In this document: one piece after another, positions 6,420 through 31,415 of the stretch
How positions within the stretch are numbered: the stretch's first letter is position 1
Layout of the letters: the number at the start of each line of letters is the position of its first letter
Source: Alphaproteobacteria bacterium
GTDB lineage: Bacteria; Pseudomonadota; Alphaproteobacteria; UBA7887
DNA length: 64,000 bases
Assembly (NCBI GenBank): GCA_965216755.1
Contig: CBDCGL010000011.1
Location: 3,072,001-3,136,000, forward strand
Reading direction: 5' to 3'
Notes under the pieces: generated by a model
What the model was told of the DNA's origin: nothing
Database searches by the model: none
The model's input: the letters and a program-made list of their open reading frames with translations, nothing else
Program-made: the position numbers and the translations under genes

Positions 6420-7292
6420 CTACTGGCCCCCACCCAAGGCGTGCACATAGACCGCCAATTGTTTGATCGTCGCATCGTCCAACCGTCCGGCCCAAGCCGG
6501 CATGTGGCCCGCGCGCGCATAGCTTATGATGTCGACGATCGTATCCTTGTCGCTGCCATAGAGCCAGATGGCGTCGTTCAGACGCGGTGCACCCAGATCG
6601 GCGAGCCCTTCGCCCTGTTCACCGTGGCACGCGGCGCAGTTATCGGCAAAAAGCGTTTCGCCGCGGCCGGCAGCGGCCTCGTCCGTGGCGGCACCGGTCA
6701 ACGACAGCACATATTCGGCAGTATCGTTGACCTCATCATCGACGAGCATTTCAAACGTCTTGAAAGGCGGCATGTCGGAAATGCGTGTTTCCTCATCGGT
6801 GGGCGACCGAATGCCGTGGCGGATGACCGAATAAATGGTATCGATGTCGCCGCCCCACAACCAATCATCGTCGTTGAGGTTGGGATAGCCGGGGCTGCCG
6901 CTGGCGCCCGACCCATGACAGGGCGCGCAGTTGTCGCCGAACGCGGCCGCGCCGCCGGCCATGGCGAAACGCAGCAAATCCGGATCGTCCAATACCGCCG
7001 CCGGCTCTGCCCCGTCAATCTGATCGACCCATTGGCTTTGCGCGGCACGCGCGGTGGCCATTTGGTCCAACACAACCTGGCGCTGGGAATAGCCGATGAC
7101 GCCCTTTGTATGGCTGCTGATCAGCGGCCAGGCCGGCATCACAATCCAATAACCGATCGCCCAAATAATGCTCGCATAGAGGACATAGAGCCACCATCGC
7201 GGCAAGGGTTGGTTTATTTCTGTCAAACCGTCCCAATCGTGGCCCGTGGTCGGCAACCCGGTGAGTTCGTCTTTTTTAATCTCAGTGGACAC
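6420..7292 (-). CDS. ccoP: cbb3-type cytochrome c oxidase subunit III (diheme c)
   Basis: TTGHDWDGL.E.NQPLPRWW and two CxxCH motifs (CAPCH, CAACH). Confidence 0.96.
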   Translation of the reverse strand: MSTEIKKDELTGLPTTGHDWDGLTEINQPLPRWWLYVLYASIIWAIGYWIVMPAWPLISSHTKGVIGYSQRQVVLDQMATARAAQSQWVDQIDGAEPAAVLDDPDLLRFAMAGGAAAFGDNCAPCHGSGASGSPGYPNLNDDDWLWGGDIDTIYSVIRHGIRSPTDEETRISDMPPFKTFEMLVDDEVNDTAEYVLSLTGAATDEAAAGRGETLFADNCAACHGEQGEGLADLGAPRLNDAIWLYGSDKDTIVDIISYARAGHMPAWAGRLDDATIKQLAVYVHALGGGQ

Positions 7293-7295
7293 GGC

Positions 7296-7442
7296 TCAAT
7301 CATCCTGAAAGGGAATATGGGCGGCACGGCGAAAGCGATCGCGATTGCGCGGCCAAAACGCCCATAAGGCGACGGCCACGAAAATCGCGACCATGACCAC
7401 AAGGGCAACGCTGCGGACGACGGTTAAGGCATCGAGTTCCAT
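7296..7442 (-). CDS. ccoQ: cbb3-type oxidase subunit CcoQ (48 aa, absent from the ORF track)
   Basis: Hand translation: MELDALTVVRSVALVVMVAIFVAVALWAFWPRNRDRFRRAAHIPFQDD*. Lies between ccoO and ccoP with an upstream GGAG. Confidence 0.9.
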   Translation of the reverse strand: MELDALTVVRSVALVVMVAIFVAVALWAFWPRNRDRFRRAAHIPFQDD

Positions 7443-7457
7443 CAGCAAAGGCTCCGA

Positions 7458-8183
7458 CTAACGAAAATCGCGGCTGGGGTCATAGGTCGTGAAATCGACC
7501 AACGTGCCCAGCATTTGCAGATAAGCAACCAAGGCATCCATTTCGGAAACGATCGTCGGATCCCCGTCGAAGTCGGCGACCACCGCCTTCGGATAACGCG
7601 TCAGCAAGCCTTCGTGATCGGCTTCCGGGTCGGCTTGGGCGGCCAGGTCTTCTGCGGCGGCGGCGACCATTTCCTCGGTGTAGGGTACGCCGACGACTTG
7701 GTTGGTGGCCAGGTGGGCGTCGATATCGCCGGCGTCGACCGCCCGGTTCATCAAAAAGCCGTAGCCGGGCATGATCGATTCCGGCACCACCGCGCGCGGG
7801 TCGATCAAATGCTCGACCTGCCACGCGTTCGAATATTTGCCGCCGAGGCGCGCCAAATCCGGCCCGGTGCGTTTCGACCCCCATTGGAACGGATGGTCAT
7901 ACATACTTTCCGCAGCCAAACTATAGTGACCGTAGCGTTCCAATTCATCGCGGAATGGTCGCACTTGCTGGCTGTGGCACACATAACACCCTTCACGGAT
8001 GTAGATGTTGCGCCCCGTCAATTCCAACGGAGAATAGGGTCTGACGCCGTCAACTTCTTCGATCGTGCTGTCCAGATAATAGAGCGGCACGATTTCGACC
8101 AAGCCGCCGACGATGACGGCCAACAAGATGAGAACACCCATGAGCAGCGTATGGCGTTCGATAACGTCGTGCTTGATGAGCAT
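7458..8183 (-). CDS. ccoO: cbb3-type oxidase subunit II
   Basis: [20 protein letters not shown] and [12 protein letters not shown] motifs. Confidence 0.97.
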
Positions 8184-8204
8184 GTTCCGCCTCCGCCGTA
8201 AGCT

Positions 8205-9662
8205 CTAGGACGCCGTCGCCGGCGCACCGGCAGGCATGGACTCTTCGGTTTCACCACGCGCCGTGCGCCACAAATTGTAGACCATGATCAACGAACCGAG
8301 GACAAACAGCGTGCCGCCCAAGGCGCGAATGACATAGTACGGGTGCATGGCTTCGACGGTCTCGACAAAGGAATATTCCAGGAAGCCGAGCGAATCGTAG
8401 GCGCGCCACATCAGGCCCTGCATAATGCCGGATACCCACATGGCGGTGATGTAGAGCACGATGCCAATTGTCGCCAGCCAGAAATGATAGCTCACCAAGC
8501 GAAGCGAATAGAGCCGTTCGCGCTGCCACACCATCGGCACCAGGCAATAGAGGGCGCCGAAGCTGACAAACCCAACCCAGCCGAGGGCGCCGGAATGGAC
8601 ATGGCCGATGGTCCAGTCGGTGTAGTGGCTGAGCGCATTGACGGCCTTGATCGACATCACCGGCCCTTCGAAAGTGCTCATGCCATAGAAGCCGACCGAG
8701 ACCACCAGGAAGCGCAACACCGGATCGGTGCGCAACTTATCCCACGCGCCCGACAAGGTCATGATGCCGTTGATCATTCCGCCCCACGAAGGCATCCACA
8801 GCATCACGGAAAAGGTCATGCCCAAGGTCTGCGCCCAATCGGGCAACGCGGTGTAGTGCAGATGGTGAGGTCCCGCCCAGATATAGAGAAAGATCAGCGA
8901 CCAGAAATGGACGATCGATAGGCGGTAGGAATAAACCGGCCGCTCCGCGCGCTTCGGGATGAAGTAGTACATGATGCCCAGAAAACCCGCGGTCAAAAAG
9001 AAACCGACCGCGTTATGGGCATACCACCATTGGGTCAGCGCGTCGTGCACGCCCGAATAGAGGATGTAGCTTTTCGCCCCCGTCCACGACACCGGCACCG
9101 CCAGATTGTTGACGATGTGCAGCATCGCGACCGTGATGATAAAGGCCAGGAAGAACCAGTTAGCAACATAGATGTGCGATTCGCGACGCTTCATCAGCGT
9201 GCCCGCGAACACCACCAAATAGACGACCCAGACGATCGTCAGCCACAAGTCGGCGTACCATTCAGGCTCAGCGTATTCTTTCGACTGGGTCACGCCGAGC
9301 ACATATCCCAGCGCCGCAATGACAATAAAGAAATTGTATCCCCAAACGACGAAATGTGCGGCGCCGCCACCGAACAGACGCGTCCGGCAGGTACGCTGAA
9401 CAACAAAAAACGACGTGGCCAACAGCGCATTGCCACCAAACGCAAAAATCACCGCAGACGTATGGACCGGGCGCAACCGCCCGAACGTGGTCCATGGCAA
9501 GTCAAGATTTAACGCCGGAAATGCCAGTTGAAAGGCGATCAAATCCCCGACAAGGAATCCGACCACGCCCCAAAATACGGTCGCGATGACGGCAAGCTTG
9601 ACGACCTTATAGTCGTAGGGCGTCGCCGCTACGGCCACGCCCTGTGCAGTCGTGTCGGTCAT
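8205..9662 (-). CDS. ccoN: cbb3-type oxidase subunit I
   Basis: [36 protein letters not shown] and WTIGHVHSG motifs. ATG 9662 follows GAGGGGG. Confidence 0.97.
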
Positions 9663-21252: not shown

Positions 21253-21963
21253 TTATGACTCTCGGAACCGGTAACCAATGCCGTACAACGTGTCAATCTG
21301 CGCGAAGCCGCCGTCGACATCGCGGAACTTCTTGCGCATGCGTTTAATGTGGCTGTCGATGGTGCGGTCATCCACATAAACGTCGTCTGAATAGGCCGCG
21401 TCCATCAACTGGTCGCGCGTTTTGACGTGACCTGGCCGGCTGGCCAGGGCCTGCAAGATCAGGAATTCGGTCACGGTCAGCGAGACCGGCTCATCGCGCC
21501 AGGTGCACAGATGACGCTCAGGATCCAGAATCAGTGGGCCGCGTTCGATCACCTCGCGTGGCGCTTCGCCCGATTCATCGTCGGCGCGCGCCAATTCTGC
21601 GCGGCGCAGCACCGCACGCACCCGTTCGATCAGCAAGCGCACCGAGAACGGCTTGGTGATGTAATCGTCGGCGCCCATTTTCAGACCGAGGATTTCGTCG
21701 AGTTCGTCGTCCTTCGACGTCAAAAAGATCACCGGTAACTGGCTTTCCCGGCGCAAGCGGGCGAGCAATTCCATACCGTCCATGCGCGGCATCTTGATGT
21801 CCAGCACCGCCAGATCCAGCGCGCTTTGCCCGATGGCCTTCAAAGCATCCTCGCCATTGGTAAATGTCTTGGTCTCGAAACCTTCGGATTCGAGCGCGAT
21901 CGAGACCGACGTCAAGATGTTCTGGTCGTCGTCGACGACCGCGATCACCGGTTGTTTCGCCAT
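21253..21963 (-). CDS. chvI: OmpR-family response regulator ChvI
   Basis: [28 protein letters not shown] and [18 protein letters not shown]...[11 protein letters not shown]. Confidence 0.95.
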
Positions 21964-22146
21964 GGCAATCTCGTCATATCGTTGGCGACCGAGGGCCGCA
22001 TGATGGCGCGGCTTGGTCTTGCCCGCCGGTTTTACCTCATATGGGCGTAAAGCTTGAGATTTTCATGCGTTTGGTCGGCGCGCACAGAGCGGCGTTCGAC
22101 CGACGCCGCGACACGACCGACTTGCGCGCCACGGTCCTTCGTGTAT

Positions 22147-22165
22147 TGTATACTGTATACAGTAT
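22147..22165. promoter_or_regulatory. putative GntR(FCD) operator of the hcm operon
   Basis: Perfect 16-bp palindrome ATACTGTATACAGTAT (22150-22165) overlapping TGTATACTGTATACA, 20 nt before the gntR ATG. Confidence 0.65.
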
Positions 22166-22184
22166 TCATTCATGATGTTGTCGT

Positions 22185-22886
22185 ATGCGGACTTTGTCGC
22201 TTTATCCGCGTCTGGTCGAACAGGCCTATGGCGAGATCCTTGAGGCAATCTGCGCGGGGCGGTTGCCTCCGGGCGCGGCCTTGGCCCAAGAGCGGCTGGC
22301 CGCACAGCTCGATGTATCCCGTCAGCCGATCGGCCAGGCACTGGCGCTGCTAAAGGCGCAGGGATTTGTCAGCGATCGCGGGCGCCGGGGCCTGATGGTA
22401 GCGCCGATCGACGCCGACTTCGCCGTTGCCCTATACGAATTTCGCAGTGCCGTCGACGGTTTGGCGGCGCGCAAAGCGGCGTTTGGTCGGGCCGATGTCG
22501 GTGTCGCGCGGTCGATCCTGAGCCGCGGCCGGGTGGCGGCCGACGCCGGCTCCATCGATGGCCTGATCACCGCCGACATGGATTTTCACGCCTGCATTTA
22601 CAGCTTGGCTGGAAACCAGATCCTGCGCGAAAGTATGACCCAACACTGGCATCACATTCGGCGCTTGATGCGGGCGATACTGACCATCGACGGCGATTGG
22701 CCGACGCGGGTTTGGGATGAGCATCAGACCATCGTCGAGACCATCGCGGCTGGCGATGAAATCCGCGCCGAAAGGCTGGCGCGTCGCCATGTCAATGCCG
22801 CGGCAGACGCCCTGCGCCGGCGCATTGTCGGCACTGCCGCCAACAGCGCGCCCCCTTTTGACAACGCCCGCGAGTTCGTCCCATGA
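22185..22886 (+). CDS. GntR (FCD) family transcriptional regulator
   Basis: wHTH '[21 protein letters not shown]' and FCD 'DMDFH...[11 protein letters not shown]...A..LARRH'. Confidence 0.92.
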
Positions 22887-23290
22887 CCGAGATCATCCGT
22901 GTCCTGATTGCCAAAGTTGGTCTGGACGGCCATGACCGTGGTGTCAAAATTGTTGCCCGCTACCTGCGTGATGCCGGCATGGATGTGATTTACACCGGCC
23001 TCCATCGCACGCCGGAAGAAGTGGTCAGTGCCGCCGTGCAAGAGGATGTCGATGTGCTCGGCATCAGTATTTTGTCCGGCGCCCACATGACCGTTTTTCC
23101 CAAAGTCATCGATCTGCTCAAGGCCGCTGGGGCCGATGACATTCTATTGGTCGGCGGCGGCGTCATGCCCGACGACGATGTGGCGGCGCTGAAGGCCCAA
23201 GGCGTCGCCGCGATTTTGCTGCAGGATACGCCGCCGGATGACATCGTCGCGACCATCCGCGACCTGGTCATGGCGCGCGGTCCACGCTAG
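22883..23290 (+). CDS. hcmB: cobalamin-binding small subunit of acyl-CoA mutase (HcmB)
   Basis: [11 protein letters not shown] (DxHxxG), GISILSGAH and GGGV motifs. ATGA overlap with gntR. Confidence 0.85.
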
Positions 23291-23300
23291 GAGATCCTTT

Positions 23301-24725
23301 ATGGAATTTTGGCAGTTTCCAACGCGCTACGACATGGCGTATCGCCCGGACCCCAAGAGCCGCTATTGGTTTCCCGAACGCGAAACCATGTCAGCCGACG
23401 AACGCGACGCGGCGATTGTCGTGCGGCTGCGCGAGGTGATGACGTACGCCTATGACCATTCACCATTTTATCGCAACCATTGGGATCAGGCCGGTATTCA
23501 CCCGGATCACATAACGTCGCTCGAGGCATTCGAGCGGGTGCCCGTGGTGACCAAACAAGACCTGCGCGCGGCCCAAGAGCGGACACCGCCGTTTGGCGAC
23601 TATCTGTGCATACCGAAGGACCAAGTGCATCATATCCACGGCACGTCGGGCACCACCGGACGGCCGACAGCATTCGGCATCAGCCGTGACGATTGGCAGA
23701 CCATCGGCGCCAACCAGGCACGTATCTTGTGGGGCATGGGTCTGCGCCCAGGTGATACGGTCTTTGTGGCGGCAATCTTTAGCCTCTATCTCGGCTCGTG
23801 GGGCGCGATGTTGGGCGCCGAACAATTGGGCGCGACATCATTTCCCTTTGGTGCCGGCGCCAGTGGCATGACCGCGCGAGCGGCCGCCTGGTTGGCCGGG
23901 ATCAAGCCGCAAGGTTTTTACAGCACACCTTCCTATGCCTTGCATTTGGCGGACGTCGCCCGTGAAGAAGGCTTTGATCCACGCGACTTCGGACTGAACG
24001 TGATGTTTTTTTCCGGTGAACCGGGCGCCTCCATCCCGGGCATCCGCGGTCGTATCGAAGACGCTTATGGCGCGACCGTATTCGATTGCGGCACCATGGC
24101 CGAAATGACCCCGTTCATGAGTGCCGCCGGCACCGCTCAATCGCACCACGGCATGCTGCTGTGGCAAGACATGGTCTATCACGAAGTGTGTGATCCGCAA
24201 TCTTTCCAAAGAGTGCCGTATGGGCAGCAAGGCACGCCGGTTTACACCCATCTTGAGCGCACCTCGCAACCGATGATCCGTTTGGCTTCTGGCGACTTGA
24301 CCCATTGGGTCAACGAACCAACCCCCTGTGGGCGCACCTATCCGTCGCTGCCTGATGGGGTCTATGGCCGCATTGACGATATGTTTCAAATTCGCGGCGA
24401 AAACATTTATCCGTCGGAAATCGACAAAGTGTTGAACATGTCAGCAGATTATGGCGGCGAGCATCGGATTGTGGTCAGCCGCGATGGCGCCATGGACGAG
24501 CTGTTGGTCCAGGTCGAAGCGGCCCCACATGTGTTCGCGCAAGGCGACGCGGCGGTCGGACAATTCGGCGACAATATGAGCCGCGCGCTGCATCGGACCT
24601 TGGGTGTGCGGGCACGGGTCGACGTATTGGCAGCGAATAGTTTGCCGCGCACCGACTTTAAGGCGCGCCGGGTCGTCGACGATCGGGATTTGTTTCGCAG
24701 CCTGCGCGCCCGGCAAGGCGCCTGA
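23301..24725 (+). CDS. hcl: 2-hydroxyisobutyrate-CoA ligase (PaaK-like ANL family)
   Basis: HGTSGTTGRPT, FSLYLGSWG, FFSGEPGAS and GRIDDMF.IRGENIYPSEI. The N-terminus SRYWFPERETM matches my recollection of Aquincola HCL. SD AGGAGA. Confidence 0.8.
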   Translation: MEFWQFPTRYDMAYRPDPKSRYWFPERETMSADERDAAIVVRLREVMTYAYDHSPFYRNHWDQAGIHPDHITSLEAFERVPVVTKQDLRAAQERTPPFGDYLCIPKDQVHHIHGTSGTTGRPTAFGISRDDWQTIGANQARILWGMGLRPGDTVFVAAIFSLYLGSWGAMLGAEQLGATSFPFGAGASGMTARAAAWLAGIKPQGFYSTPSYALHLADVAREEGFDPRDFGLNVMFFSGEPGASIPGIRGRIEDAYGATVFDCGTMAEMTPFMSAAGTAQSHHGMLLWQDMVYHEVCDPQSFQRVPYGQQGTPVYTHLERTSQPMIRLASGDLTHWVNEPTPCGRTYPSLPDGVYGRIDDMFQIRGENIYPSEIDKVLNMSADYGGEHRIVVSRDGAMDELLVQVEAAPHVFAQGDAAVGQFGDNMSRALHRTLGVRARVDVLAANSLPRTDFKARRVVDDRDLFRSLRARQGA

Positions 24726-24731
24726 CTGATT

Positions 24732-25715
24732 GTGGCCCACGATCCCTCCGCCGGGCCGCCCGACGCCGATTTGCACGCCGCCGTCTTGGCCGGCAATATG
24801 CGCGCCATCGCGCGTCTGATCAGTCGCGCCGAATCCGGTGACGCTGCCGCCCGACCGGTGTTGGCGGCGCTTTATGGCGAGACCGGTCGCGCGCATATTG
24901 TTGGCGTCACCGGCGTGCCCGGCAGCGGCAAATCGTCGCTGGTACAGCAATTGGTGCATGCCTTGCGTTCCGACGGCCGCACGGTCGGGGTGCTGGCGGT
25001 GGACCCATCGAGTCCTTTCAGCGGCGGTTCTGTATTGGGCGATCGCATTCGGATGACCGAACATGCCGGCGACCCAGGCGTTTTTATTCGCAGCATGGCG
25101 ACCCGCGGCGCGTTGGGCGGTTTGGCGCGCGCTGCAATGGACGCAGTCGACGTCATGGATGCCGGCGGCTTTGACACGATCATTATCGAGACCGTTGGCG
25201 CCGGCCAAGACGAAGTCGATATTGTGCGCGCCGCACATACCACCGTGGTGGTCTCGGCACCTGGCTTGGGCGACGACATACAAGCGATCAAAGCCGGCAT
25301 TTTGGAGATTGCGGATATTCACGTGGTCAGCAAGTGCGACCGTTCCGATGCCAATAAAACCATTGTTGACCTTAAGGCCATGCTGGCGTTGAGCTTGGTC
25401 CTAGATTCGCGCGACCCATGGGCGACTCCGGTGGTGCCGACCAGCGCCGAAACCGGCGAAGGAATTGCCGACTTGCGCGAGACCATTGCGCGCCATCACG
25501 GTTACCTGATCGAAAGCGGCACGATCGCCGACCGCCGCCACGCCATCGCCGAAGCGCGGACTCTCAAGATCGCCGAAGACCTGGTGCGCCGACGACTGCT
25601 TGGCTCAACCGATGACCGCGCCCGAGATCTGGTGGCGCAAGTTGCCGCGCGCACCATCGATCCACACCACGCCGCGGCGCTATTGCTTGAACGTTTGTCC
25701 GAGGTATGCCCATGA
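24732..25715 (+). CDS. meaH: MeaB/MeaH G-protein chaperone of B12 mutase
   Basis: GVPGSGKSS, VDPSSPFSGGSVLGDRIRM, ETVGAGQ, GDDIQAIKAGILEIAD and SKCD motifs. Confidence 0.88.
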   Translation: MAHDPSAGPPDADLHAAVLAGNMRAIARLISRAESGDAAARPVLAALYGETGRAHIVGVTGVPGSGKSSLVQQLVHALRSDGRTVGVLAVDPSSPFSGGSVLGDRIRMTEHAGDPGVFIRSMATRGALGGLARAAMDAVDVMDAGGFDTIIIETVGAGQDEVDIVRAAHTTVVVSAPGLGDDIQAIKAGILEIADIHVVSKCDRSDANKTIVDLKAMLALSLVLDSRDPWATPVVPTSAETGEGIADLRETIARHHGYLIESGTIADRRHAIAEARTLKIAEDLVRRRLLGSTDDRARDLVAQVAARTIDPHHAAALLLERLSEVCP

Positions 25716-27412
25716 GCACCGACGAAACTGCGGCGACAAACGCGTCCTCTCCCTCGCTGTCGGAGACCCTCGCCACTTGGGAAAAGGACGTTGTCGCACC
25801 ATTCATCGCGCGCCAGCCGGAAACACAAGCTGACTATCGGACCGCGTCGGGCTTACCACTGCAGAGGACCTATACCGCATTGGATGCGGGTACAGCGCCA
25901 CCCGAGGATATCGGCCTGCCCGGCAGCTATCCGTTCACGCGCGGGCCCTATCCGACCATGTACCGCGCGCGCCCCTGGACCATGCGCCAGATCGCCGGCT
26001 TCGGCACCGGCGCCGACACCAATCGGCGCTTCAAATATCTGCTCGAACAGGGGCAAACCGGCCTGTCGACCGATTTCGATATGCCGACCTTGATGGGCTA
26101 TGACTCGGACAATCCGATGAGCGACGGCGAGGTCGGCCGCGAGGGCGTGGCCGTCGATACCATCGACGACATGGAAGCGCTGTTCGACGGCATCGACCTG
26201 ACCAAGATTTCAGTGTCGATGACGATCAATCCCAGCGCTTGGATTGTCTACGCCATGTTTATCGCGCTGGCGCGCCGGCGCGGCGACGACCTCCATGCCC
26301 TTTCGGGCACTATTCAAGCCGATATTCTGAAGGAATACATCGCGCAGAAAGAGTGGATCTATCCGGTTCGGCCGTCTGTGCGGCTGGTGCGCGACTGCGT
26401 CGCTTTTGGCGCCGCGCACATGCGGCGCTTTAATCCGCTCAATATATCCGGCTACCACATGTCCGAAGCCGGCGCGACCGCCGTGCAAGAAGCCGCGTTC
26501 ACCATCGCCAACACCATCGCCTATGTGGAAGAACTGTCGCGCGCCGGCTTGCACGTCGACGATTATGCACCGCGGTTGTCGTTCTTCTTTGTTGCTCAGG
26601 CGGATTTCTTTGAAGAGATCGCCAAATTCCGCGCCGTGCGTCGGGTTTATGCCAAGGTCATGAAAGAGCGATTCGGCGCCACCAAACCGGAAGCCATGCG
26701 GATGCGCTTTCATACCCAGACCGCGGCCGCCACATTGACCAAGCCGCAATATCAGATCAATGTGGTGCGCACGGCTTTGCAGGCCCTGGCGGCGATATTG
26801 GGCGGCACCCAAAGTCTGCATACCAATGGCATGGACGAGGCGTTCACGATTCCCACCGAAGAGGCGATGAAAATCGCGTTGCGCACCCAACAGATCATTG
26901 CTGATGAAACCAATGTGACATCGGTGGTCGACCCGCTCGGCGGATCCTATTTTGTTGAAAGCCTGACGACAAAGATGGAACAGGAAATCTTCGCAATTTT
27001 GGACAAGGTCGACGACATGGGCGGCACCATCCAAGCGATCGAAGACGGTTGGTTCCAGCGCCAAATCGCCGATTCGGCGTATCGCTTCGCGCTCGACAAG
27101 GCGCGCGGGGAACGGCCGGTTCTGGGCGTCAACAAATATGTCGAACCGGATGACATACCGGCGATCGAAACCCACCCGTATGATCCGAACACCCAGCAGC
27201 GCCAAATCCAAAATCTTCACCGGGTGCGGGCGCGCCGCGACAATGACCTGGTCGAACGTCTGCTTGATGAACTGGAAGCCACGGCGCGCGATGAGAGCGC
27301 GAATCTGATGCCGATCACCATCGATTTGGTCGACGCGCGGGCCTCCATGGGCGAGATTGTCGAACGCTTGCGCGGCCTGTGGGGCAGCTATCGCGAACAA
27401 CCGGTAATTTAG
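25712..27412 (+). CDS. hcmA: 2-hydroxyisobutyryl-CoA mutase large subunit
   Basis: PFTRGPYPTMY..RPWTMRQIAGF has Ile where MCM has Tyr and ICM has Phe. GLSTDFDMPTLMGYD (HCM Asp), ILKEYIAQKEW and ISGYH are also present. Confidence 0.88.
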   Translation: MSTDETAATNASSPSLSETLATWEKDVVAPFIARQPETQADYRTASGLPLQRTYTALDAGTAPPEDIGLPGSYPFTRGPYPTMYRARPWTMRQIAGFGTGADTNRRFKYLLEQGQTGLSTDFDMPTLMGYDSDNPMSDGEVGREGVAVDTIDDMEALFDGIDLTKISVSMTINPSAWIVYAMFIALARRRGDDLHALSGTIQADILKEYIAQKEWIYPVRPSVRLVRDCVAFGAAHMRRFNPLNISGYHMSEAGATAVQEAAFTIANTIAYVEELSRAGLHVDDYAPRLSFFFVAQADFFEEIAKFRAVRRVYAKVMKERFGATKPEAMRMRFHTQTAAATLTKPQYQINVVRTALQALAAILGGTQSLHTNGMDEAFTIPTEEAMKIALRTQQIIADETNVTSVVDPLGGSYFVESLTTKMEQEIFAILDKVDDMGGTIQAIEDGWFQRQIADSAYRFALDKARGERPVLGVNKYVEPDDIPAIETHPYDPNTQQRQIQNLHRVRARRDNDLVERLLDELEATARDESANLMPITIDLVDARASMGEIVERLRGLWGSYREQPVI

Positions 27413-27417
27413 TCCGC

Positions 27418-28500
27418 ATGACCGCCGGCCTGCTCCTTCCCTATCTCGAGTCCCGCCCCCATGTGGGCGACGCCGCGCGCGGCCCGAGTTCGGCGGTGAT
27501 CGGCCGCGTGAGCCTCGGCCGCGGGGTGTCGCTCGGGGCGCTCGCGACGTTGCGCGCCGACGGCCATGACATCACCGTCGGCGACGACTGCATGTTTCTG
27601 GATCGCGCCACGGTGCATATCGCCGACAAGATCTATCCGGCGACCATCGGCCACCGGGTAACGGTCGGCCGCTTCGCCCTGGTCCATGCCTGCCGCGTCG
27701 ATGACGATTGTGTCATTGGCGATGCCGCCGTGATCATGGACAATTCCCACCTCGGCCGCGGCGCGGCCCTGGCCGCTGGCGCCTTGGTGCCGCCCGGCAA
27801 GACCCTTGCGGGTGGCCAGCTCTATGCCGGCAATCCGGCGCGGCCGGTGCGGACACTCAACGCCGATGACTTGGCCGCCTTGCGCCAAGGGTTGATCGCC
27901 GGCGATGGCGGCGAGATCACCTGCCCAGAGGCGCTGCCACCCCTGACCATGGCCCCCTACATTCCGACGGAGCGGGCCAGCCCACCGCTCTACTGGCTGG
28001 ACGAGCGGTTTCCGCGCATCGACCCTTTGGCCTATGTGGCGCCGAGCGCGGTCGTCGCCGGCAATGTGCTGGTTGGCCGCGATGTCAGTATTTGGTTCGC
28101 AACTGTGGTTCGCGCCGACAACGCGCAGATCGCGATCGGGCCGCGTAGCAATATTCAAGACAACACGATTATCGAAACCACCGCCGATCGCGGTTTGGTG
28201 ACCATCGGCTCAGACGTGACCGTCGGCCACAATGTGCGCATGGGCGCGTGTGTCATCGAAGACGAATGTTTGATCGGCATGGGCGCGGAAATGGCCGACG
28301 GCGTGGTGGTCGAACATGGCGCCATTGTCGGCGCGCGGGCATTCGTCGAGTCGGGCACAGTGGTCCGCACCGGCCATGTTTGGGCAGGTCGACCGGCGAA
28401 ACTGTTCCGCGAGGTCAAACCGGCGGAGCGTGCGTTTTTCACCCGCGGCAAAGAGGTGTATGTCGGATACACCCAGAACTACCGCATCCAGGCCGCCTAA
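27418..28500 (+). CDS. tandem two-domain gamma-carbonic-anhydrase-like (CaiE/PaaY/YrdA family) protein
   Basis: Two left-handed beta-helix hexapeptide domains (LRAD..D.ATVH..VGR..VHAC and VRAD..NIQD..VGH..GAC), each followed by a G.PA..R motif. Confidence 0.85.
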   Translation: MTAGLLLPYLESRPHVGDAARGPSSAVIGRVSLGRGVSLGALATLRADGHDITVGDDCMFLDRATVHIADKIYPATIGHRVTVGRFALVHACRVDDDCVIGDAAVIMDNSHLGRGAALAAGALVPPGKTLAGGQLYAGNPARPVRTLNADDLAALRQGLIAGDGGEITCPEALPPLTMAPYIPTERASPPLYWLDERFPRIDPLAYVAPSAVVAGNVLVGRDVSIWFATVVRADNAQIAIGPRSNIQDNTIIETTADRGLVTIGSDVTVGHNVRMGACVIEDECLIGMGAEMADGVVVEHGAIVGARAFVESGTVVRTGHVWAGRPAKLFREVKPAERAFFTRGKEVYVGYTQNYRIQAA

Positions 28501-28516
28501 GCACCTTTCTCTAATT

Positions 28517-28600
28517 CGGTGACAGTTTACTAAATACACCAAATATTGTATGCTGCAGTAATAATATACGAAATATAGTGTATTTAGTAAACTGTCACCG
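28517..28600. repeat. 84-bp palindromic element, copy 1
   Basis: CGGTGACAGTTTACTAAATA + 44 nt + TATTTAGTAAACTGTCACCG, flanked by AATT on both sides. Confidence 0.95.
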
Positions 28601-28611
28601 AATTCGTAAAC

Positions 28612-28920
28612 TCAATTATCATAGCCGAAAAGCCAGCGCATGGTGCCGTGATGGATATTGCGCACCGAATGTACTGCGCGGCGGGGAATGAATATTTCGT
28701 CACCCGGTTCGGCCACTACCGTGTCGTCGTCCACCGTCAGCTGCAAGCGGCCATCCACGACCGTCACCAACTCGTTGGTCTGGTGAACAAAATCCAGCCA
28801 GGCCTGACCCGGCGGATCGGTGAACATGTGGCACGAGTAGCCGCGCGCGCCCCATGCATCGGCGACCGCGCTTTGGTCGACCGGCGGCGCAAACACGCTC
28901 CGCGTGAGCAGCTTTGACAT
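28612..28920 (-). CDS. cupin domain protein
   Basis: WLDFVHQTNELVTVVDG...PGDEIFIPRRAVHSVRN cupin motifs. Confidence 0.85.
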   Translation of the reverse strand: MSKLLTRSVFAPPVDQSAVADAWGARGYSCHMFTDPPGQAWLDFVHQTNELVTVVDGRLQLTVDDDTVVAEPGDEIFIPRRAVHSVRNIHHGTMRWLFGYDN

Positions 28921-29029
28921 ATGTGTTTCCCAGCCTTGATGGTTTGCCGCGATCATGTGCCATCATACGCGTCGTTTGGCCCGTTGGTCATCACGAGTCG
29001 CAAACCGAAGAAATCGAGGGGAAGCCGCC

Positions 29030-30622
29030 ATGGCCGTGCGCCGCTTGCGTTTTTGGGGCTGGGGATATGAAGACGAACCAATCGACGCGGCCGAGGCGGC
29101 ACGCGTCGTCCAACATGTGCAACGGCGCCTGGCCGCACCTGATCTTGAGGAAGACCCGGCGCCACGCCTAGAGGATATCGAATTGTCGGCGCCGCGCTTA
29201 TCGCCACCGGCGAGCTTGCGCGACATCTGCGACACGGCACCGATCGAACGGGTCAGCCATACCTATGGCAAATCATTCCCCGACTATGTGCGAACGCTGT
29301 CGCGCGACTTCTCGGTCGCGCCGGACGTGGTCGCCTATCCACGTCATGAAGCCGATATTGTCGACCTGCTGGCGTGGGCCAGCGACACCCATGCGGCCGT
29401 GATCCCCTTCGGCGCCGGGTCGTCGGTGGTCGGCGGCGTCGAAGCCGCCGTTGGCGACGGTTATCGCGGCGTTATCACGATTGACTTGCGCCAGCTGGAC
29501 CAGGTTCTCGAAGTCGACGAAACCTCGCGCGCGGCGCGCATTCAGGGCGGCGTGCTGGGCCCGCATATGGATGCTCAGCTCAAGCCGCATGGCTTTTCCA
29601 TGCGCCATTTCCCGCAATCCTATCAATTCTCGACCTTGGGCGGCTGGATCGCGACGCGGTCGGGTGGTCATTACGCCAGTCTGTACACCCATATTGACGA
29701 CTTCGTCGAATCGCTACGCGTGGTCACGCCGGCGGGCGTCATCGAAAGCCGGCGCCTGCCGGGATCCGGCGCCGGGCCGAGCCCAGACCGTTTCTTCATT
29801 GGCTCCGAGGGCACTTTGGGCGTTATTACCGAAGCGTGGATGCGGGTGCAGAACCGACCGACGCACAAGGCCGCGGCGTCGATGTGGTTCTATGAATATC
29901 AACAAGCGTCGCGCGCCGTCCGGGCGATTGCCCAGGCCGGGCTTTATCCATCCAATTGCCGGTTGATTGATGCCGACGAAACCGCCATGACCCTGGCCGG
30001 CGATGGCAGCCGCCACCTGTTGGTGTTGGGCTTCGAATCGGGCGACCACCCAGTCGACGCGTGGATGGCACGCGCCATCGAATGTTGCCAGGATTTCGGC
30101 GGCGTCCGCGACGACTCCGAAGCGGCCGGCCAGTCCACGGGCGCCGGCGGTTGGCGCACCGCGTTCATCCGCGCGCCTTTCTATCGCAGCCACCTGATCG
30201 CCCGCGGCATCATTCACGACACGTTCGAGACGTCGATTCCGTGGGATCATTTCCCGGAATTCCATGCCCGTGTGAAAACCGCCACGGCTCAAGCCATCCA
30301 TGACGTGACCGGACGCGACGGCACCGTGACCTGCCGCTTTACCCATGTCTATCCTGATGGTCCGGCACCCTATTTCACGTTTCATGCGGTTGGCAAAAAG
30401 GGTGCTCTTCTCGAGCAATGGCGGGACCTGAAGCAGATCGCCTCGGATATACTATTGAAAGAGGGTGGCACGATTACCCATCATCATGCGGTCGGCCGCG
30501 ACCACCGACCCTGGTATGATCAGCAAAGACCGGACTTGTTCGCCGACGCCGTCCAAGCCGCCAAAACCAAGCTTGATCCCAAGGGTGTTCTCAACCCGGG
30601 CGTTTTGATCGATCCGGCTTAA
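29030..30622 (+). CDS. FAD-binding oxidoreductase, alkyl-DHAP-synthase-like (VAO/PCMH family)
   Basis: FWGWG, PFGAGSSVVGG, RHFPQSYQFSTLGGWIATRSGG, GSEGTLG, THHHAVGRDH and DPKGVLNPG. Confidence 0.88.
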   Translation: MAVRRLRFWGWGYEDEPIDAAEAARVVQHVQRRLAAPDLEEDPAPRLEDIELSAPRLSPPASLRDICDTAPIERVSHTYGKSFPDYVRTLSRDFSVAPDVVAYPRHEADIVDLLAWASDTHAAVIPFGAGSSVVGGVEAAVGDGYRGVITIDLRQLDQVLEVDETSRAARIQGGVLGPHMDAQLKPHGFSMRHFPQSYQFSTLGGWIATRSGGHYASLYTHIDDFVESLRVVTPAGVIESRRLPGSGAGPSPDRFFIGSEGTLGVITEAWMRVQNRPTHKAAASMWFYEYQQASRAVRAIAQAGLYPSNCRLIDADETAMTLAGDGSRHLLVLGFESGDHPVDAWMARAIECCQDFGGVRDDSEAAGQSTGAGGWRTAFIRAPFYRSHLIARGIIHDTFETSIPWDHFPEFHARVKTATAQAIHDVTGRDGTVTCRFTHVYPDGPAPYFTFHAVGKKGALLEQWRDLKQIASDILLKEGGTITHHHAVGRDHRPWYDQQRPDLFADAVQAAKTKLDPKGVLNPGVLIDPA

Positions 30623-30641: not shown

Positions 30642-31415
30642 GTGGCACAATCAGCCGTTCGCCGTTCTGCCGTCAGCACCATGAGCGATGCTGAATGGGA
30701 TACCCGCGTCGCCTTGGCCGCCACCTATCGGGTGTTCGCCGAAATGGGCATGGACGATTTGATCTACACCCACATTTCGGCGCGTCTGCCCGACGCACCG
30801 GAGCACTTCCTTCTGAACCCATTCGGCCTGATGTTTGAGGAAGTGACGGCGTCGAACTTGGTCAAGGTCGATCTGGAGGGCACACCGGTAGACCCGGATT
30901 CGGCGCCCGTCAATCGCGCCGGCTTCGTGATCCACAGTGCCTTCCACGCCGGATGCCATCGGGCCAATTGCGTGATTCATCTGCATTCGGAAGCGGGCTG
31001 CGCCGTAGCGGCGCAAAAGGATGGCTTGCTACCCTTATCGCAATATTACTTTTTCAGCGGTGGCGGCGTCGCCTATCACGCCTATGAGGGGCTGGCGCTG
31101 GACGATGATGAAAAGGCGCGGCTTGTCGACGATTTGGGTGATAAGAACTGGATGGTGCTGCGCAACCATGGCCTGTTGACTGTCGGCCACACAGTCGCCG
31201 CGGCGTTCTTCCATATGTACAATTTGGAACGCGCCTGTCGGGTCCAGGTGGCCGCCCGCGGCGGTGGCGCCGCGATCGAACTGCCGGCCAAAACGGTTCA
31301 GGAGAAGACCCAGGCCCAGCGGCCGGTCAGTCTAGACCTTGGCGAATGGGGCCAACGGGAGTTGGCGGCCTGGATGCGCAAGTTGGACCGCGCCGGCAGC
31401 GACTACCGTCAATAG
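30642..31415 (+). CDS. class II aldolase/adducin family protein
   Basis: DLIYTHISAR, FLLNPFGLMFEEVTASNL, IHSAFH, CVIHLHS and LRNHGLL. Confidence 0.92.
   Translation: MAQSAVRRSAVSTMSDAEWDTRVALAATYRVFAEMGMDDLIYTHISARLPDAPEHFLLNPFGLMFEEVTASNLVKVDLEGTPVDPDSAPVNRAGFVIHSAFHAGCHRANCVIHLHSEAGCAVAAQKDGLLPLSQYYFFSGGGVAYHAYEGLALDDDEKARLVDDLGDKNWMVLRNHGLLTVGHTVAAAFFHMYNLERACRVQVAARGGGAAIELPAKTVQEKTQAQRPVSLDLGEWGQRELAAWMRKLDRAGSDYRQ

Follow-up and report, generated by a model that had tools for sequence, protein, structure and literature searches.

The window, by which we mean the whole stretch of 64,000 nucleotides that was analysed, carries six consecutive genes on its forward strand, of which the last encodes a tandem protein of the gamma-carbonic anhydrase (gamma-CA) family:

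22185..22886, + strand: GntR/FCD regulator, first gene of the cluster (Pfam GntR and FCD)
22883..23290, + strand: hcmB-like B12-binding small subunit (TIGR00640, 152 bits, above cut-off)
23238..24725, + strand: PaaK-family acyl-CoA ligase, HCL-like, start codon uncertain (AMP-binding_C_2; PaaK models below cut-off)
24732..25715, + strand: MeaB/MeaH-type G-protein chaperone (TIGR00750, 340 bits, above cut-off)
25706..27412, + strand: hcmA-like large subunit, B12-dependent acyl-CoA mutase (MM_CoA_mutase, 683 bits, E 2.9e-205)
27418..28500, + strand: tandem gamma-CA-family gene, 360 aa plus stop (translation; Pfam Hexapep; NCBIfam gamma-CA models on two stretches; AF2)

The frame from 27418 to 28500 on the + strand was open, and its translation gave a 360-aa product that included both strings FLDRATVHIADKIYPATIGHRVTVGRFALVHAC and NIQDNTIIETTADRGLVTIGSDVTVGHNVRMGAC. 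The hcmA stop codon TAG (27410-27412) is followed by the 5 nt TCCGC and then by the ATG at 27418, as the 5-nt gap given in the earlier note for this junction implies. A GTG start at 27379, which would lengthen the ORF, was disfavoured because homologues align from the ATG at 27418. The tandem gamma-CA gene probably closes a 2-hydroxyisobutyrate operon (GntR, hcmB, CoA ligase, meaB, hcmA) and is probably co-translated with hcmA, whose product is 67-75% identical to the mutase found beside tandem gamma-CAs elsewhere. A promoter/terminator scan of 21500-29200 gave counts equal to the shuffled expectation, and an Rfam scan of 15000-40000 found one tRNA only and no cobalamin riboswitch.

The product consists of two domains and a linker:

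27418..27912, + strand: domain 1 (D1, residues 1-165), beta-helix plus short helix 149-161, predicted to supply the His1/His3 half of the site (secondary structure, alignments)
27913..27987, + strand: Pro-rich linker (about residues 166-190), without regular secondary structure
27988..28497, + strand: domain 2 (D2, residues 191-360), beta-helix plus long C-terminal helix 335-359, predicted to supply the His2 half

The hexapeptide-repeat left-handed parallel beta-helix with C-terminal helix that marks the gamma-CA family was found in the tandem protein (Pfam Hexapep E 8.4e-22). The AF2 single-chain model had a mean pLDDT of 96.2 and a pTM of 0.94, with 10-residue-block means of 79-91 across residues 161-190 in the linker region. 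Foldseek matched this model with probability 1.00 to YrdA, 3vnp, 1xhd and others, and each domain superposed on single gamma-CA chains with a target-normalised TM of up to 0.96. D2 was 31-40% identical to the solved chains that Foldseek ranked first, its top match to solved gamma-CAs spanning residues 189-356 (E about 1e-34), and the complex I CAL subunits 6x89_L2, 7a23_o and 7aqq_x matched best over D1 residues 76-157. All Foldseek matches were single-domain; no solved chain holding two gamma-CA-type domains was returned, and that search gave no solved precedent for a gamma-CA unit made of two helices whose third face is open. The shorter homologues held no evidence for a split form with D1 as its own protein: D1-like matches, taken as candidate stand-alone D1-type proteins, seemed to be fragments of tandem genes or copies of them with frameshifts, and the rest were canonical three-His single domains. 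The tandem protein shares the left-handed beta-helix and C-terminal helix of Cam (Methanosarcina thermophila) and YrdA-type proteins (PDB 3tio, 3ixc, 1xhd), as well as the canonical positions of the metal ligands and of the Arg/Asp and Asn/Gln/Asp second shell. However, Cam and YrdA are homotrimers of single domains with three sites, whereas here two domains are fused and no third is evident.

According to the portion of PMC4519908 available to us, the gamma-CA metal is bound by His81 and His122 of one monomer and His117 of its neighbour, in agreement with the ligand assignment made in the earlier note. The corresponding positions of the tandem protein are as follows:

27616..27618, + strand: His67, predicted metal ligand 1 (Cam His81 position); 120/120 homologues, 78/78 metagenome loci; touches H271 in the model
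27670..27672, + strand: Arg85 at the lost D1 ligand-2 position (Cam His117 position); R 117, S 2, A 1 of 120
27685..27687, + strand: His90, predicted metal ligand 3 (Cam His122 position); 120/120; touches H271 in the model
28174..28176, + strand: Glu253 at the lost D2 ligand-1 position; variable, V/L/E/A/I/D; Y or H in other clades
28228..28230, + strand: His271, predicted metal ligand 2 (Cam His117 position); 120/120 homologues, 70/70 metagenome copies
28243..28245, + strand: Gly276 at the lost D2 ligand-3 position; G 106/120, never His in the 120

Alignment of D1 with single-domain gamma-CAs and with D2 showed H67, R85 and H90 to occupy the positions of ligands 1, 2 and 3, respectively. Residue-by-residue comparison of D2 with solved gamma-CAs placed E253 at the first ligand His, H271 at the 'GH' His and G276 at the third His; the 3ixc alignment with D2 shows the ligand positions as NIQDNTVVHTDS...VTIGHSCILHAC. 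Neither domain holds all three ligand His, since D1 reads H-R-H and D2 reads E-H-G, and the full set is present only across D1 and D2 together. The two halves of the pattern claimed in the earlier note, a D1 with His1 and His3 and Arg at His2, and a D2 with His2 only and Glu and Gly elsewhere, are therefore both correct.

Conservation was scored in a close-family set of 120 tandem homologues (47-64% identity) and in a metagenome set obtained by a scan with a D1-only alignment, in which 78 loci were scored for D1 and 70 full-length copies for D2. D1 was H-R-H in 78/78 metagenome loci, and the D2 His2 was kept in 70/70 copies. At position 253 His was not among the six most frequent residues (V42, L22, E13, A11, I9, D9; n=120), and position 276 was F/Y/A/H/S/E/N in the metagenome loci of other clades. 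Among 34 distant tandem representatives (27-58% identity) position 85 was never His, and R46, D48, H67, H90, N245, Q247, D248 and H271 were all kept in 32; one representative, P0261, had lost both His90 and His271. The complementary His pattern, whose conservation in homologues the earlier note had named as a check, is thus kept in the close family (120/120) and well beyond it (32/34). Judged from these alignments, the H-R-H / E-H-G split is not a chance pattern.

The second-shell residues are also divided between the domains:

27553..27561, + strand: Arg46-Ala47-Asp48, counterparts of Cam Arg59/Asp61; R46 and D48 each 120/120 (codons checked)
28150..28161, + strand: Asn245-Ile-Gln247-Asp248, counterparts of Cam Asn73/Gln75/Asp76; Q247 and D248 120/120, N245 107/120

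The D2 counterparts of Arg46 and Asp48 have decayed (R232 in 43/120, D234 in 40/120), and the D1 counterparts of Gln247 and Asp248, L61 and D62, are variable. Gln247 and Asp248 were invariant in 36 aligned representatives, and R46, D48, Q247 and D248 were kept in 70/70 full-length metagenome copies. The second shell of the gamma-CA family is therefore present, each residue once per chain. Mean conservation by face showed a modest contrast only (0.75 vs 0.61 and 0.76 vs 0.70); the case for a complementary split is based on the individual residues given above and makes no use of these averages. Complementarity of the second shell was absent from the earlier note and was found in the present analysis.

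We consider it likely that D1 and D2 form a single composite metal site where the two domains meet. The two left-handed beta-helix domains would lie against each other as adjacent subunits do in a gamma-CA trimer, D1 giving the face with ligands 1 and 3 (His67, His90) and the Arg46/Asp48 pair. Ligand 2 (His271) and Asn245/Gln247/Asp248 would come from the facing surface of D2. On the reciprocal faces of D1 and D2 the ligand and second-shell residues have been lost. Because these faces are degenerate, one metal per 360-aa chain is expected, compared with three per canonical trimer. Each domain keeps half of the ligands, so that a single active site would be possible only jointly, and with one site face per domain there would be at most one site per tandem chain. 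The proposal that neither domain could make a homotrimeric site and that together they make one asymmetric site is supported by the lack of a full ligand set in either domain, by the conserved pattern and by the model contacts described below.

D1 (residues 1-185) and D2 (residues 186-360) were modelled as two chains, with Zn included but unscored. The D1/D2 score was 0.95 in all three runs, and the best of 3 controls scored 0.01; the score mark was reached by 116/157 solved complexes and 2/215 mismatched pairs, a calibration that is only approximate here because our own alignment was supplied and a small molecule was in the model. The high score may also partly reflect solved gamma-CA trimers. 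Contacts agreed between the runs to at least 94%, and the pLDDT of the partner was 94 or higher. The pairs with the lowest error at the interface included 67-271, 90-271, 65-271, 88-271, 67-248 and 46-248, and in the contact list H67 and H90 both touched H271, which is the convergence of His residues that had been put forward as a model check. The D1 interface residues were 42-48, 63-70 and 86-90, and linker residues 174, 178 and 181-183 touched D2. Arg85 was not named in the D1-D2 interface of this model; residue 253, at the vestigial D2 ligand-1 position, was listed there. The listing of residue 253 counts against the composite site, as do the near-invariance of Arg85 in the close family (117/120), the loss of His90 and His271 in P0261 and the missing solved precedent for a two-helix unit. 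The two-chain model also bears on a different arrangement, in which three chains would form separate rings, a D1 homotrimer and a D2 homotrimer, with no three-His interface; the protein would then carry no metal, act as a scaffold or in binding, and use its His residues for another purpose. Every solved gamma-CA-family member that we found is a trimer of single domains, as this arrangement would have it. We regard it as very improbable, because it leaves unexplained why exactly the complementary ligands and second shell should stay unchanged when the residues reciprocal to them have decayed, and because the AF2 pTM of 0.94 and the two-chain result (0.95 against 0.01, with 67/90-271 contacts) favour pairing within the chain.

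Another reading keeps the one complete site but makes the D1-D2 unit two thirds of a pseudo-trimer, closed by a separately encoded beta-helix as CAL closes CA1/CA2/CAL. Gamma-CA interfaces normally occur in threes, and 5/5 checked genomes with hcm-linked tandem genes also encode a gamma-CA homologue of one domain, with 30-36% identity to D2. On the other side, no further gamma-CA was found in the source genome, which is 99.8% complete, its single other match being a weak 54-residue hexapeptide (E 7.7e-5); no third gamma-CA subunit is therefore available there. In the class sample, the six genomes with full-length tandem genes and one with a partial copy (G304) gave one match each at E<=1e-20, and conservation at the former ligand positions is poor on the faces that a third subunit would contact. 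A pseudo-trimer is thus improbable in our estimate, and the composite site would be made by D1 and D2 with no third helix.

A parallel to such a composite site is found in plant complex I. In the text of PMC8290278 accessible to us, only the CA1/CA2 interface of Arabidopsis complex I is complete, CA1 giving H130, N99, Q101, D102 and Y207 and CA2 giving H107, H135 and R86. As far as that text goes, CA1/CA2/CAL2 and the tandem protein each have one interface with all three His, and in both the donor of His2 also gives Asn/Gln/Asp (plus Tyr in complex I) and the donor of His1/His3 gives Arg. The tandem protein is thus built of non-identical gamma-CA-fold units with one predicted interfacial three-His site, as judged from the residue pattern, the model contacts and the split described in that text. 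The analogy with complex I drawn in the earlier note is therefore apt, the residues being divided between CA1 and CA2 as between D2 and D1. The architecture differs: the complex I proteins are three separate polypeptides on a membrane complex, whereas one fused, bacterial and presumably soluble two-domain chain was found here instead of three separate subunits attached to complex I. Furthermore, in complex I it is CAL that has lost ligands, CA1 and CA2 each having the complete set, whereas both domains of the tandem protein are degenerate and complementary.

The position of the tandem gene after hcmA was examined in other genomes. A profile scan of reference genomes with D2-derived patterns, in which neighbour genes were identified by tblastn with the proteins of the window and by Pfam on all ORFs, kept 80 loci, 11 of them tandem, and 7 of these 11 adjoin hcmB-hcl-meaB-hcmA. 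Among 59 assessable metagenome loci, each with at least 400 nt upstream, the directly upstream gene was hcmA in 39 and 2-hydroxyacyl-CoA-lyase-like in 4 (43/59 together), and 13 had no hcm gene upstream. The median gap between hcmA and the tandem gene in the metagenome loci was 21 nt. Co-occurrence with hcm clusters, suggested earlier as a check, is thus real and recurrent. The linkage label needed 12 changes on the tree, and at least 7 are required by its well-supported branches. The same hcm operon occurs in a sister genus with no tandem gamma-CA gene downstream. In 6/10 genomes tested with unlinked copies there was no hcmA orthologue, just MCM-like matches of 42-47%, and in many loci the downstream neighbour was the housekeeping pyrophosphatase gene (ppa).

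PaaY is a thioesterase, and a PaaY-like thioesterase role is plausible for the tandem protein. The genes for PaaY (phenylacetate operon) and CaiE (carnitine operon) are gamma-CA-family genes that lie beside a dedicated acyl-CoA ligase, here of the PaaK family. However, PaaY and CaiE are single-domain proteins, whereas the tandem protein has two domains and falls below both cut-offs (PaaY, TIGR02287, 146.1 bits against 319.6; CaiE, NF010150, 129.1 bits against 305). No other paa genes were found among the ten neighbours scanned, and no cai genes were nearby. Our best guess, which is a tentative one, is that the protein hydrolyses CoA thioesters of the pathway in a metal-dependent manner, as a PaaY-like CoA-recycling or proofreading thioesterase. 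Against it count the scores below the PaaY, CaiE and gamma-CA equivalog cut-offs, the 13 of 59 loci with no hcm gene upstream, the presence of the tandem family also in genomes without hcmA, and the frequent downstream neighbour ppa. CO2/bicarbonate interconversion by the tandem protein seems unlikely to us, and the remaining share goes to other or non-catalytic roles.

The tandem protein might instead be a housekeeping gamma-carbonic anhydrase with a real site, whose place after hcmA is synteny without meaning for the pathway. The composite site carries all canonical CA-site residues, the best NCBIfam match was the gamma-CA equivalog NF050158 (217.4 bits over two stretches, below its cut-off of 250), the protein is the sole gamma-CA found in its genome, and the family also occurs beside ppa and in genomes lacking hcmA. 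We nevertheless hold this reading to be doubtful. The tight, repeated placement after hcmA or the lyase gene (43/59; gap 21 nt; at least 7 label changes) is hard to call chance, and we know of no carboxylation step in the 2-hydroxyisobutyrate pathway. In addition, the position of Cam Glu62, a residue whose role is taken from the available portion of PMC4519908, is an invariant Gly49 in the 120 homologues of the tandem family.

A more specific form of the hydrolase reading is that the tandem protein would be an obligately asymmetric, single-site, two-helix enzyme with no third subunit that was repeatedly recruited to B12-mutase/lyase operons as a dedicated CoA-thioester hydrolase; this we offer as speculation with a low chance of being right. 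Its substrate might be 2-hydroxyisobutyryl-CoA on stalling of the mutase, or formyl-CoA from a co-encoded 2-hydroxyacyl-CoA lyase. For the actinobacterial pathway, no specific formyl-CoA-hydrolysing enzyme had been identified according to the part of PMC7176365 that we could consult, in which the hcm operon comprises hcl, hcmAB, meaH and a GntR regulator only.

We found no description in the literature of a tandem or fused gamma-CA, or of a gamma-CA gene in hcm clusters. To our knowledge, gamma-CA-family proteins are nearly universal and most have no proven function. PMC13098186 mentions duplicated genes only, not a fused gamma-CA, and PMC8084838 describes an induced 'carbonic anhydrase/acetyltransferase' in the Desulfotomaculum acetone cluster.

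If D1 and D2 do share one site, duplication and fusion would have cut three symmetric interfacial sites to one, with selection retained on just one face per domain, and the tandem family would be a clean record of the residues that matter. It would offer a natural single-site, single-chain scaffold for the study and engineering of gamma-CAs, useful because a mutation then affects one copy of a residue instead of three, and a bacterial counterpart to the asymmetric CA domain of complex I. The tandem gene is also a conserved addition to the 2-hydroxyisobutyryl-CoA mutase operons that serve in 2-hydroxyisobutyrate bioproduction, and if its product is a pathway thioesterase, the CoA balance and the yields of engineered pathways would be affected.

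Translation of the 360-codon open frame at 27418-28500 (+) yielded the tandem gamma-CA protein, and both strings quoted in the earlier note were present in the product. As that note had claimed, the gene begins 5 nt past hcmA, whose TAG at 27410-27412 is followed by five bases and then the ATG. An alternative GTG-started ORF from 27379 exists, yet 119 homologues align from the ATG. The first four genes below, all co-directional with the tandem gene, were assigned using Pfam and NCBIfam.

22185-22886, + strand: GntR/FCD regulator
22883-23290, + strand: B12-binding small subunit (hcmB)
23238-24725, + strand: PaaK-family CoA ligase (hcl)
24732-25715, + strand: MeaB-type GTPase (meaB)
25706-27412, + strand: mutase large subunit (hcmA), full-length methylmalonyl-CoA-mutase type (Pfam MM_CoA_mutase, E 2.9e-205)
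27418-28500, + strand: tandem gamma-CA gene
28955-30622, + strand: GlcD-like FAD-linked oxidase, after a 455-nt gap 3' of the tandem gene
30642-31415, + strand: class II aldolase/adducin-family protein, next after the oxidase

The cluster upstream of the tandem gene has the same layout as the 2-hydroxyisobutyryl-CoA mutase operons (hcl, hcmAB and meaH with a GntR regulator) in the available text of PMC7176365. The FAD-binding domain of the GlcD-like oxidase begins only at ORF residue 123, and tblastn found no counterpart of this oxidase or of the aldolase beside the tandem genes in 16 reference loci. The G+C content was 66.3% in the tandem gene, 61.2% in the five upstream operon genes and 61.7% in the whole window; the higher value may reflect a Gly/Ala/Val-rich repeat composition or a history unlike that of the hcm genes.

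Two hexapeptide/gamma-CA stretches were recognised in the protein by Pfam and NCBIfam. According to the available text of a review (PMC4519908), one Cam monomer contributes His81 and His122 to the metal site and its neighbour contributes His117. When residues 1-165 were aligned with single-domain gamma-CAs of the canonical type and with the second domain (D2), H67, R85 and H90 of the first domain (D1) fell at the three ligand positions, and HMMER alignments of residues 189-356 matched E253, H271 and G276 to the three metal-binding histidines of solved gamma-CAs. The proposed complementary halves, His-Arg-His in D1 and Glu-His-Gly in D2, were thereby confirmed.

This composite gamma-CA-type site, as read from alignments, is conserved. 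A word-indexed protein search returned 675 proteins at E <= 0.001, and the best 120 of them, which were analysed, were all tandem (348-389 aa, 47-64% identity). Among these 120, H67, H90 and H271 were each present in 120/120; position 85 was R in 117, S in 2 and A in 1; position 276 was G in 106 and never His; and position 253 was variable, the six commonest residues listed being V, L, E, A, I and D. Scanning metagenome contigs specifically for D1 yielded 78 loci that encode a D1-type domain, 70 of them full-length copies. D1 was H-R-H in 78/78, and His271, R46, D48, Q247 and D248 were retained in 70/70, so that the complementary pattern held in all 120 homologues, all 78 D1 and all 70 D2 domains. 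The vestigial D2 positions 253 and 276 drifted among the metagenome loci (253/271/276 triplets: V-H-G 30, Y-H-F 13, E-H-G 5, A-H-G 5, Y-H-Y 3, H-H-H 3). In loci L149, L154 and L162, D2 was still H-H-H while D1 was H-R-H, and in L134-L158 it was mostly Y-H-F or Y-H-Y, with a large hcm-linked clade carrying Tyr and Phe/Tyr at the vestigial positions. These clade-specific states look like stages of decay after loss of the middle His of D1, and the conserved aromatic pair could have a role of its own.

More distant relatives were collected with HMMER, run exhaustively against representatives at 50% identity, which gave 89 clusters at E <= 1e-30. From 150 listed, 35 of tandem length were picked and aligned with the query, and 34/35 were two-domain. 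All of R46, D48, H67, H90, N245, Q247, D248 and H271 were retained in 32 of these 34, and position 85 was never His. One exception, P0261 (353 aa, tandem), carries Arg in place of His90 and Gln in place of His271, and its lineage appears to have lost the composite site; the other, P0297, is a truncated protein with Ala46/Thr48. In P0372 and P0377 the D2-type domain is complete, and the N-terminal portion shows poor alignment or none. The representative search also gave longer relatives, P0245 (826 aa, three matched stretches), P0265 (460 aa) and P0281 (514 aa), and further clusters of tandem length are present in the Atlas: a 338-aa one, auto-named CaiE, and a 324-aa one from Bacillota.

The complementarity of the two domains, in the aligned residues, reaches past the metal ligands into the second shell. 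Arg46 and Asp48 of D1 were invariant and their D2 counterparts were not (R232 43/120, D234 40/120), while Gln247 and Asp248 of D2 were invariant, Asn245 was present in 107/120, and the D1 counterparts at 61/62 were variable. Judged from these patterns, purifying selection on site residues is limited to one face per domain, as a single site between D1 face 1 and D2 face 2 predicts. The sole complete site of Arabidopsis complex I, in the available text of PMC8290278, is split between CA1 (H130, N99, Q101, D102, Y207) and CA2 (H107, H135, R86) in the way that the residues are split here between D2 and D1.

We also analyzed predicted structures. AlphaFold2, with a 120-row alignment, gave a mean pLDDT of 96.2 and a pTM of 0.94. 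The predicted fold has two beta-helices; a short helix and a Pro-rich linker come after D1, and the C-terminal helix is long. When D1 (1-185) and D2 (186-360) were folded as separate chains with Zn included, all three runs gave a two-chain score of 0.95, against 0.01 for the highest of three controls. The benchmark mark is reached by 116/157 solved complexes and 2/215 mismatched pairs, counts that are only rough here because a custom alignment and a ligand were used. The runs agreed in at least 94% of contacts, with partner pLDDT of at least 94, and the lowest-error contacts included 67-271, 90-271, 65-271, 88-271, 67-248 and 46-248. The three histidines are thus predicted to meet, as the earlier note had anticipated, and Arg46 to meet Asp248 in a productive orientation, although the pass may be a memory of solved relatives, since gamma-CA trimers are solved. 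The model interface names residue 253, but not R85 or G276. Foldseek against the PDB matched only single-domain gamma-CA chains (target-normalised TM up to 0.96, query-normalised about 0.45) and no solved chain with two such domains.

A separate protein might close the D1-D2 pair into a pseudo-trimer in genomes other than that of the window, and all five checked genomes with hcm-linked tandem genes encode a distant single-domain homologue that would be available for this. We regard this arrangement as improbable; the window's 99.8%-complete genome contained no other gamma-CA, its sole other match being a 54-residue hexapeptide stretch (E 7.7e-5). Of 401 sampled genomes from the window's class, 264 had a gamma-CA match, and all listed non-tandem matches covered the D2 half only. 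Tandem genes were found in G000, G182, G161, G391, G119 and G275 and a partial copy in G304, each genome having a single gamma-CA match. A search for short stand-alone D1-type proteins turned up only what look like fragments of tandem genes.

The tandem gene was recurrently and tightly operon-linked to a CoA-ester pathway starting with a PaaK-family ligase. In reference genomes, 7/11 tandem loci lay directly after hcmB-hcl-meaB-hcmA. L003 has a partial copy of a thiamine-diphosphate enzyme gene, which in two other reference loci separates hcmA from the tandem gene:

L002:6168-7928, + strand: thiamine-diphosphate enzyme
L004:6237-7952, + strand: thiamine-diphosphate enzyme

The L002 enzyme matched the solved actinobacterial 2-hydroxyacyl-CoA lyase 7pt1 with 615 bits. 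Such a lyase within an hcm operon places mutase and lyase routes for 2-hydroxyisobutyryl-CoA in one operon; the available text of PMC7176365 describes the lyase-HCL cluster in strains without the mutase. The same placement was seen in L174, L175, L190, L196 and L210 (G408:C34), several such loci being betaproteobacterial. The remaining four reference loci had housekeeping neighbours: L008 and L010 have proS upstream, and these two and L011 have ppa and an EamA transporter downstream.

The 59 metagenome loci with at least 400 nt upstream came from a scan that retained its 80 top matches, the search alignment having 7/16 hcm-linked rows, and contigs from related samples among them are not independent. 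The gene directly upstream was hcmA in 39 of these loci, lyase-like in 4 and MeaB-like in 1; a related thiamine enzyme lay 1.6 kb away in 2, and 13 had none of these. Co-occurrence with hcm clusters, which the earlier note had suggested checking, was therefore seen as hcmA or a lyase-like gene directly upstream in 43/59. The median gap from hcmA to the tandem gene was 21 nt (41 loci), and the order hcmA, tandem gene, GntR (reverse), ppa was found in many metagenome loci. The inorganic pyrophosphatase gene ppa lay 0.1-1.2 kb downstream in many loci, with or without upstream hcm genes, often with the reverse GntR gene between (ppa downstream: L008, L010, L011, L157, L160, L168-L171, L174, L177-L179, L181, L183-L186, L189, L191, L193, L194, L200, L203-L205). 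This proximity may be lineage synteny or a tie to the PPi-forming CoA ligase. In L207 a single-domain three-His gamma-CA (8001-8525) is directly followed by a MeaB-like gene (8564-9514) 58% identical to the window's, and in L160 a MeaB-like gene (6824-7768) is the immediate 5' neighbour of the tandem gene, hcmA being absent from that position; it may be the mutase chaperone itself that gamma-CA-fold genes accompany.

A FastTree phylogeny was built from 133 tandem proteins. The six hcm-linked reference copies grouped together in it, and the window protein lay in the other half amid copies with other contexts. When 49 copies were labelled as linked and 20 as unlinked, the linkage label needed 12 changes, at least seven of them forced by well-supported branches. 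In G304, from the sister genus of the window's family, a GntR-hcmB-hcl-meaB-hcmA operon (71-80% identity to the window's hcmB, hcl and hcmA, about 61% to meaB) had 6 kb downstream without the tandem gene, and in G161, also from this sister genus, the same operon had 421 nt to the contig end and no tandem gene there; in both, the tandem gene was on another contig. The tree position and these operons argue that the 5-nt juxtaposition in the window arose separately from the betaproteobacterial one. Six of ten tested genomes with unlinked copies had no hcmA orthologue, only 42-47% MCM-like matches, and the other four had one elsewhere in the genome.

PaaY, a gamma-CA-fold thioesterase, is encoded beside PaaK. 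Given this precedent and the operon pattern, CoA-thioester hydrolysis is a tentative first guess for the chemistry that we infer. Formyl-CoA would be an attractive candidate substrate in lyase-containing operons, because no specific formyl-CoA hydrolase is identified for the actinobacterial pathway in the available text of PMC7176365. A genuine carbonic anhydrase, which we consider rather unlikely, would fit the intact composite site, the housekeeping contexts of some loci and the tandem gene being the only gamma-CA found in the window's genome; however, the Cam Glu62 position is an invariant Gly49 in the tandem family. The protein was not classed in the gamma-CA, PaaY or CaiE equivalogs, because it scored below every curated NCBIfam cut-off (217.4/250, 146.1/319.6 and 129.1/305 bits, respectively).

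Full-text searches, with subscription journals, supplements and figures outside their scope, returned no description of a tandem, fused or duplicated gamma-CA and none of a gamma-CA gene in hcm clusters, for which a published gene map with the ORF may exist. Homologues carry no database name more specific than 'gamma carbonic anhydrase family protein' or 'isoleucine patch superfamily'. Within that scope, the architecture read from alignments and models, two fused and mutually degenerate gamma-CA domains with one putative composite site, appears to be new, and so does the recurrent presence of such a gene in 2-hydroxyisobutyryl-CoA mutase operons. An acetone-induced cluster of the Firmicute Desulfotomaculum arcticum includes a B12 mutase, a thiamine enzyme and an induced 'carbonic anhydrase/acetyltransferase' gene, 04007 (PMC8084838). 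Because the Atlas has a 324-aa cluster in Bacillota, 04007 may, going by its annotation, be related to the tandem family.
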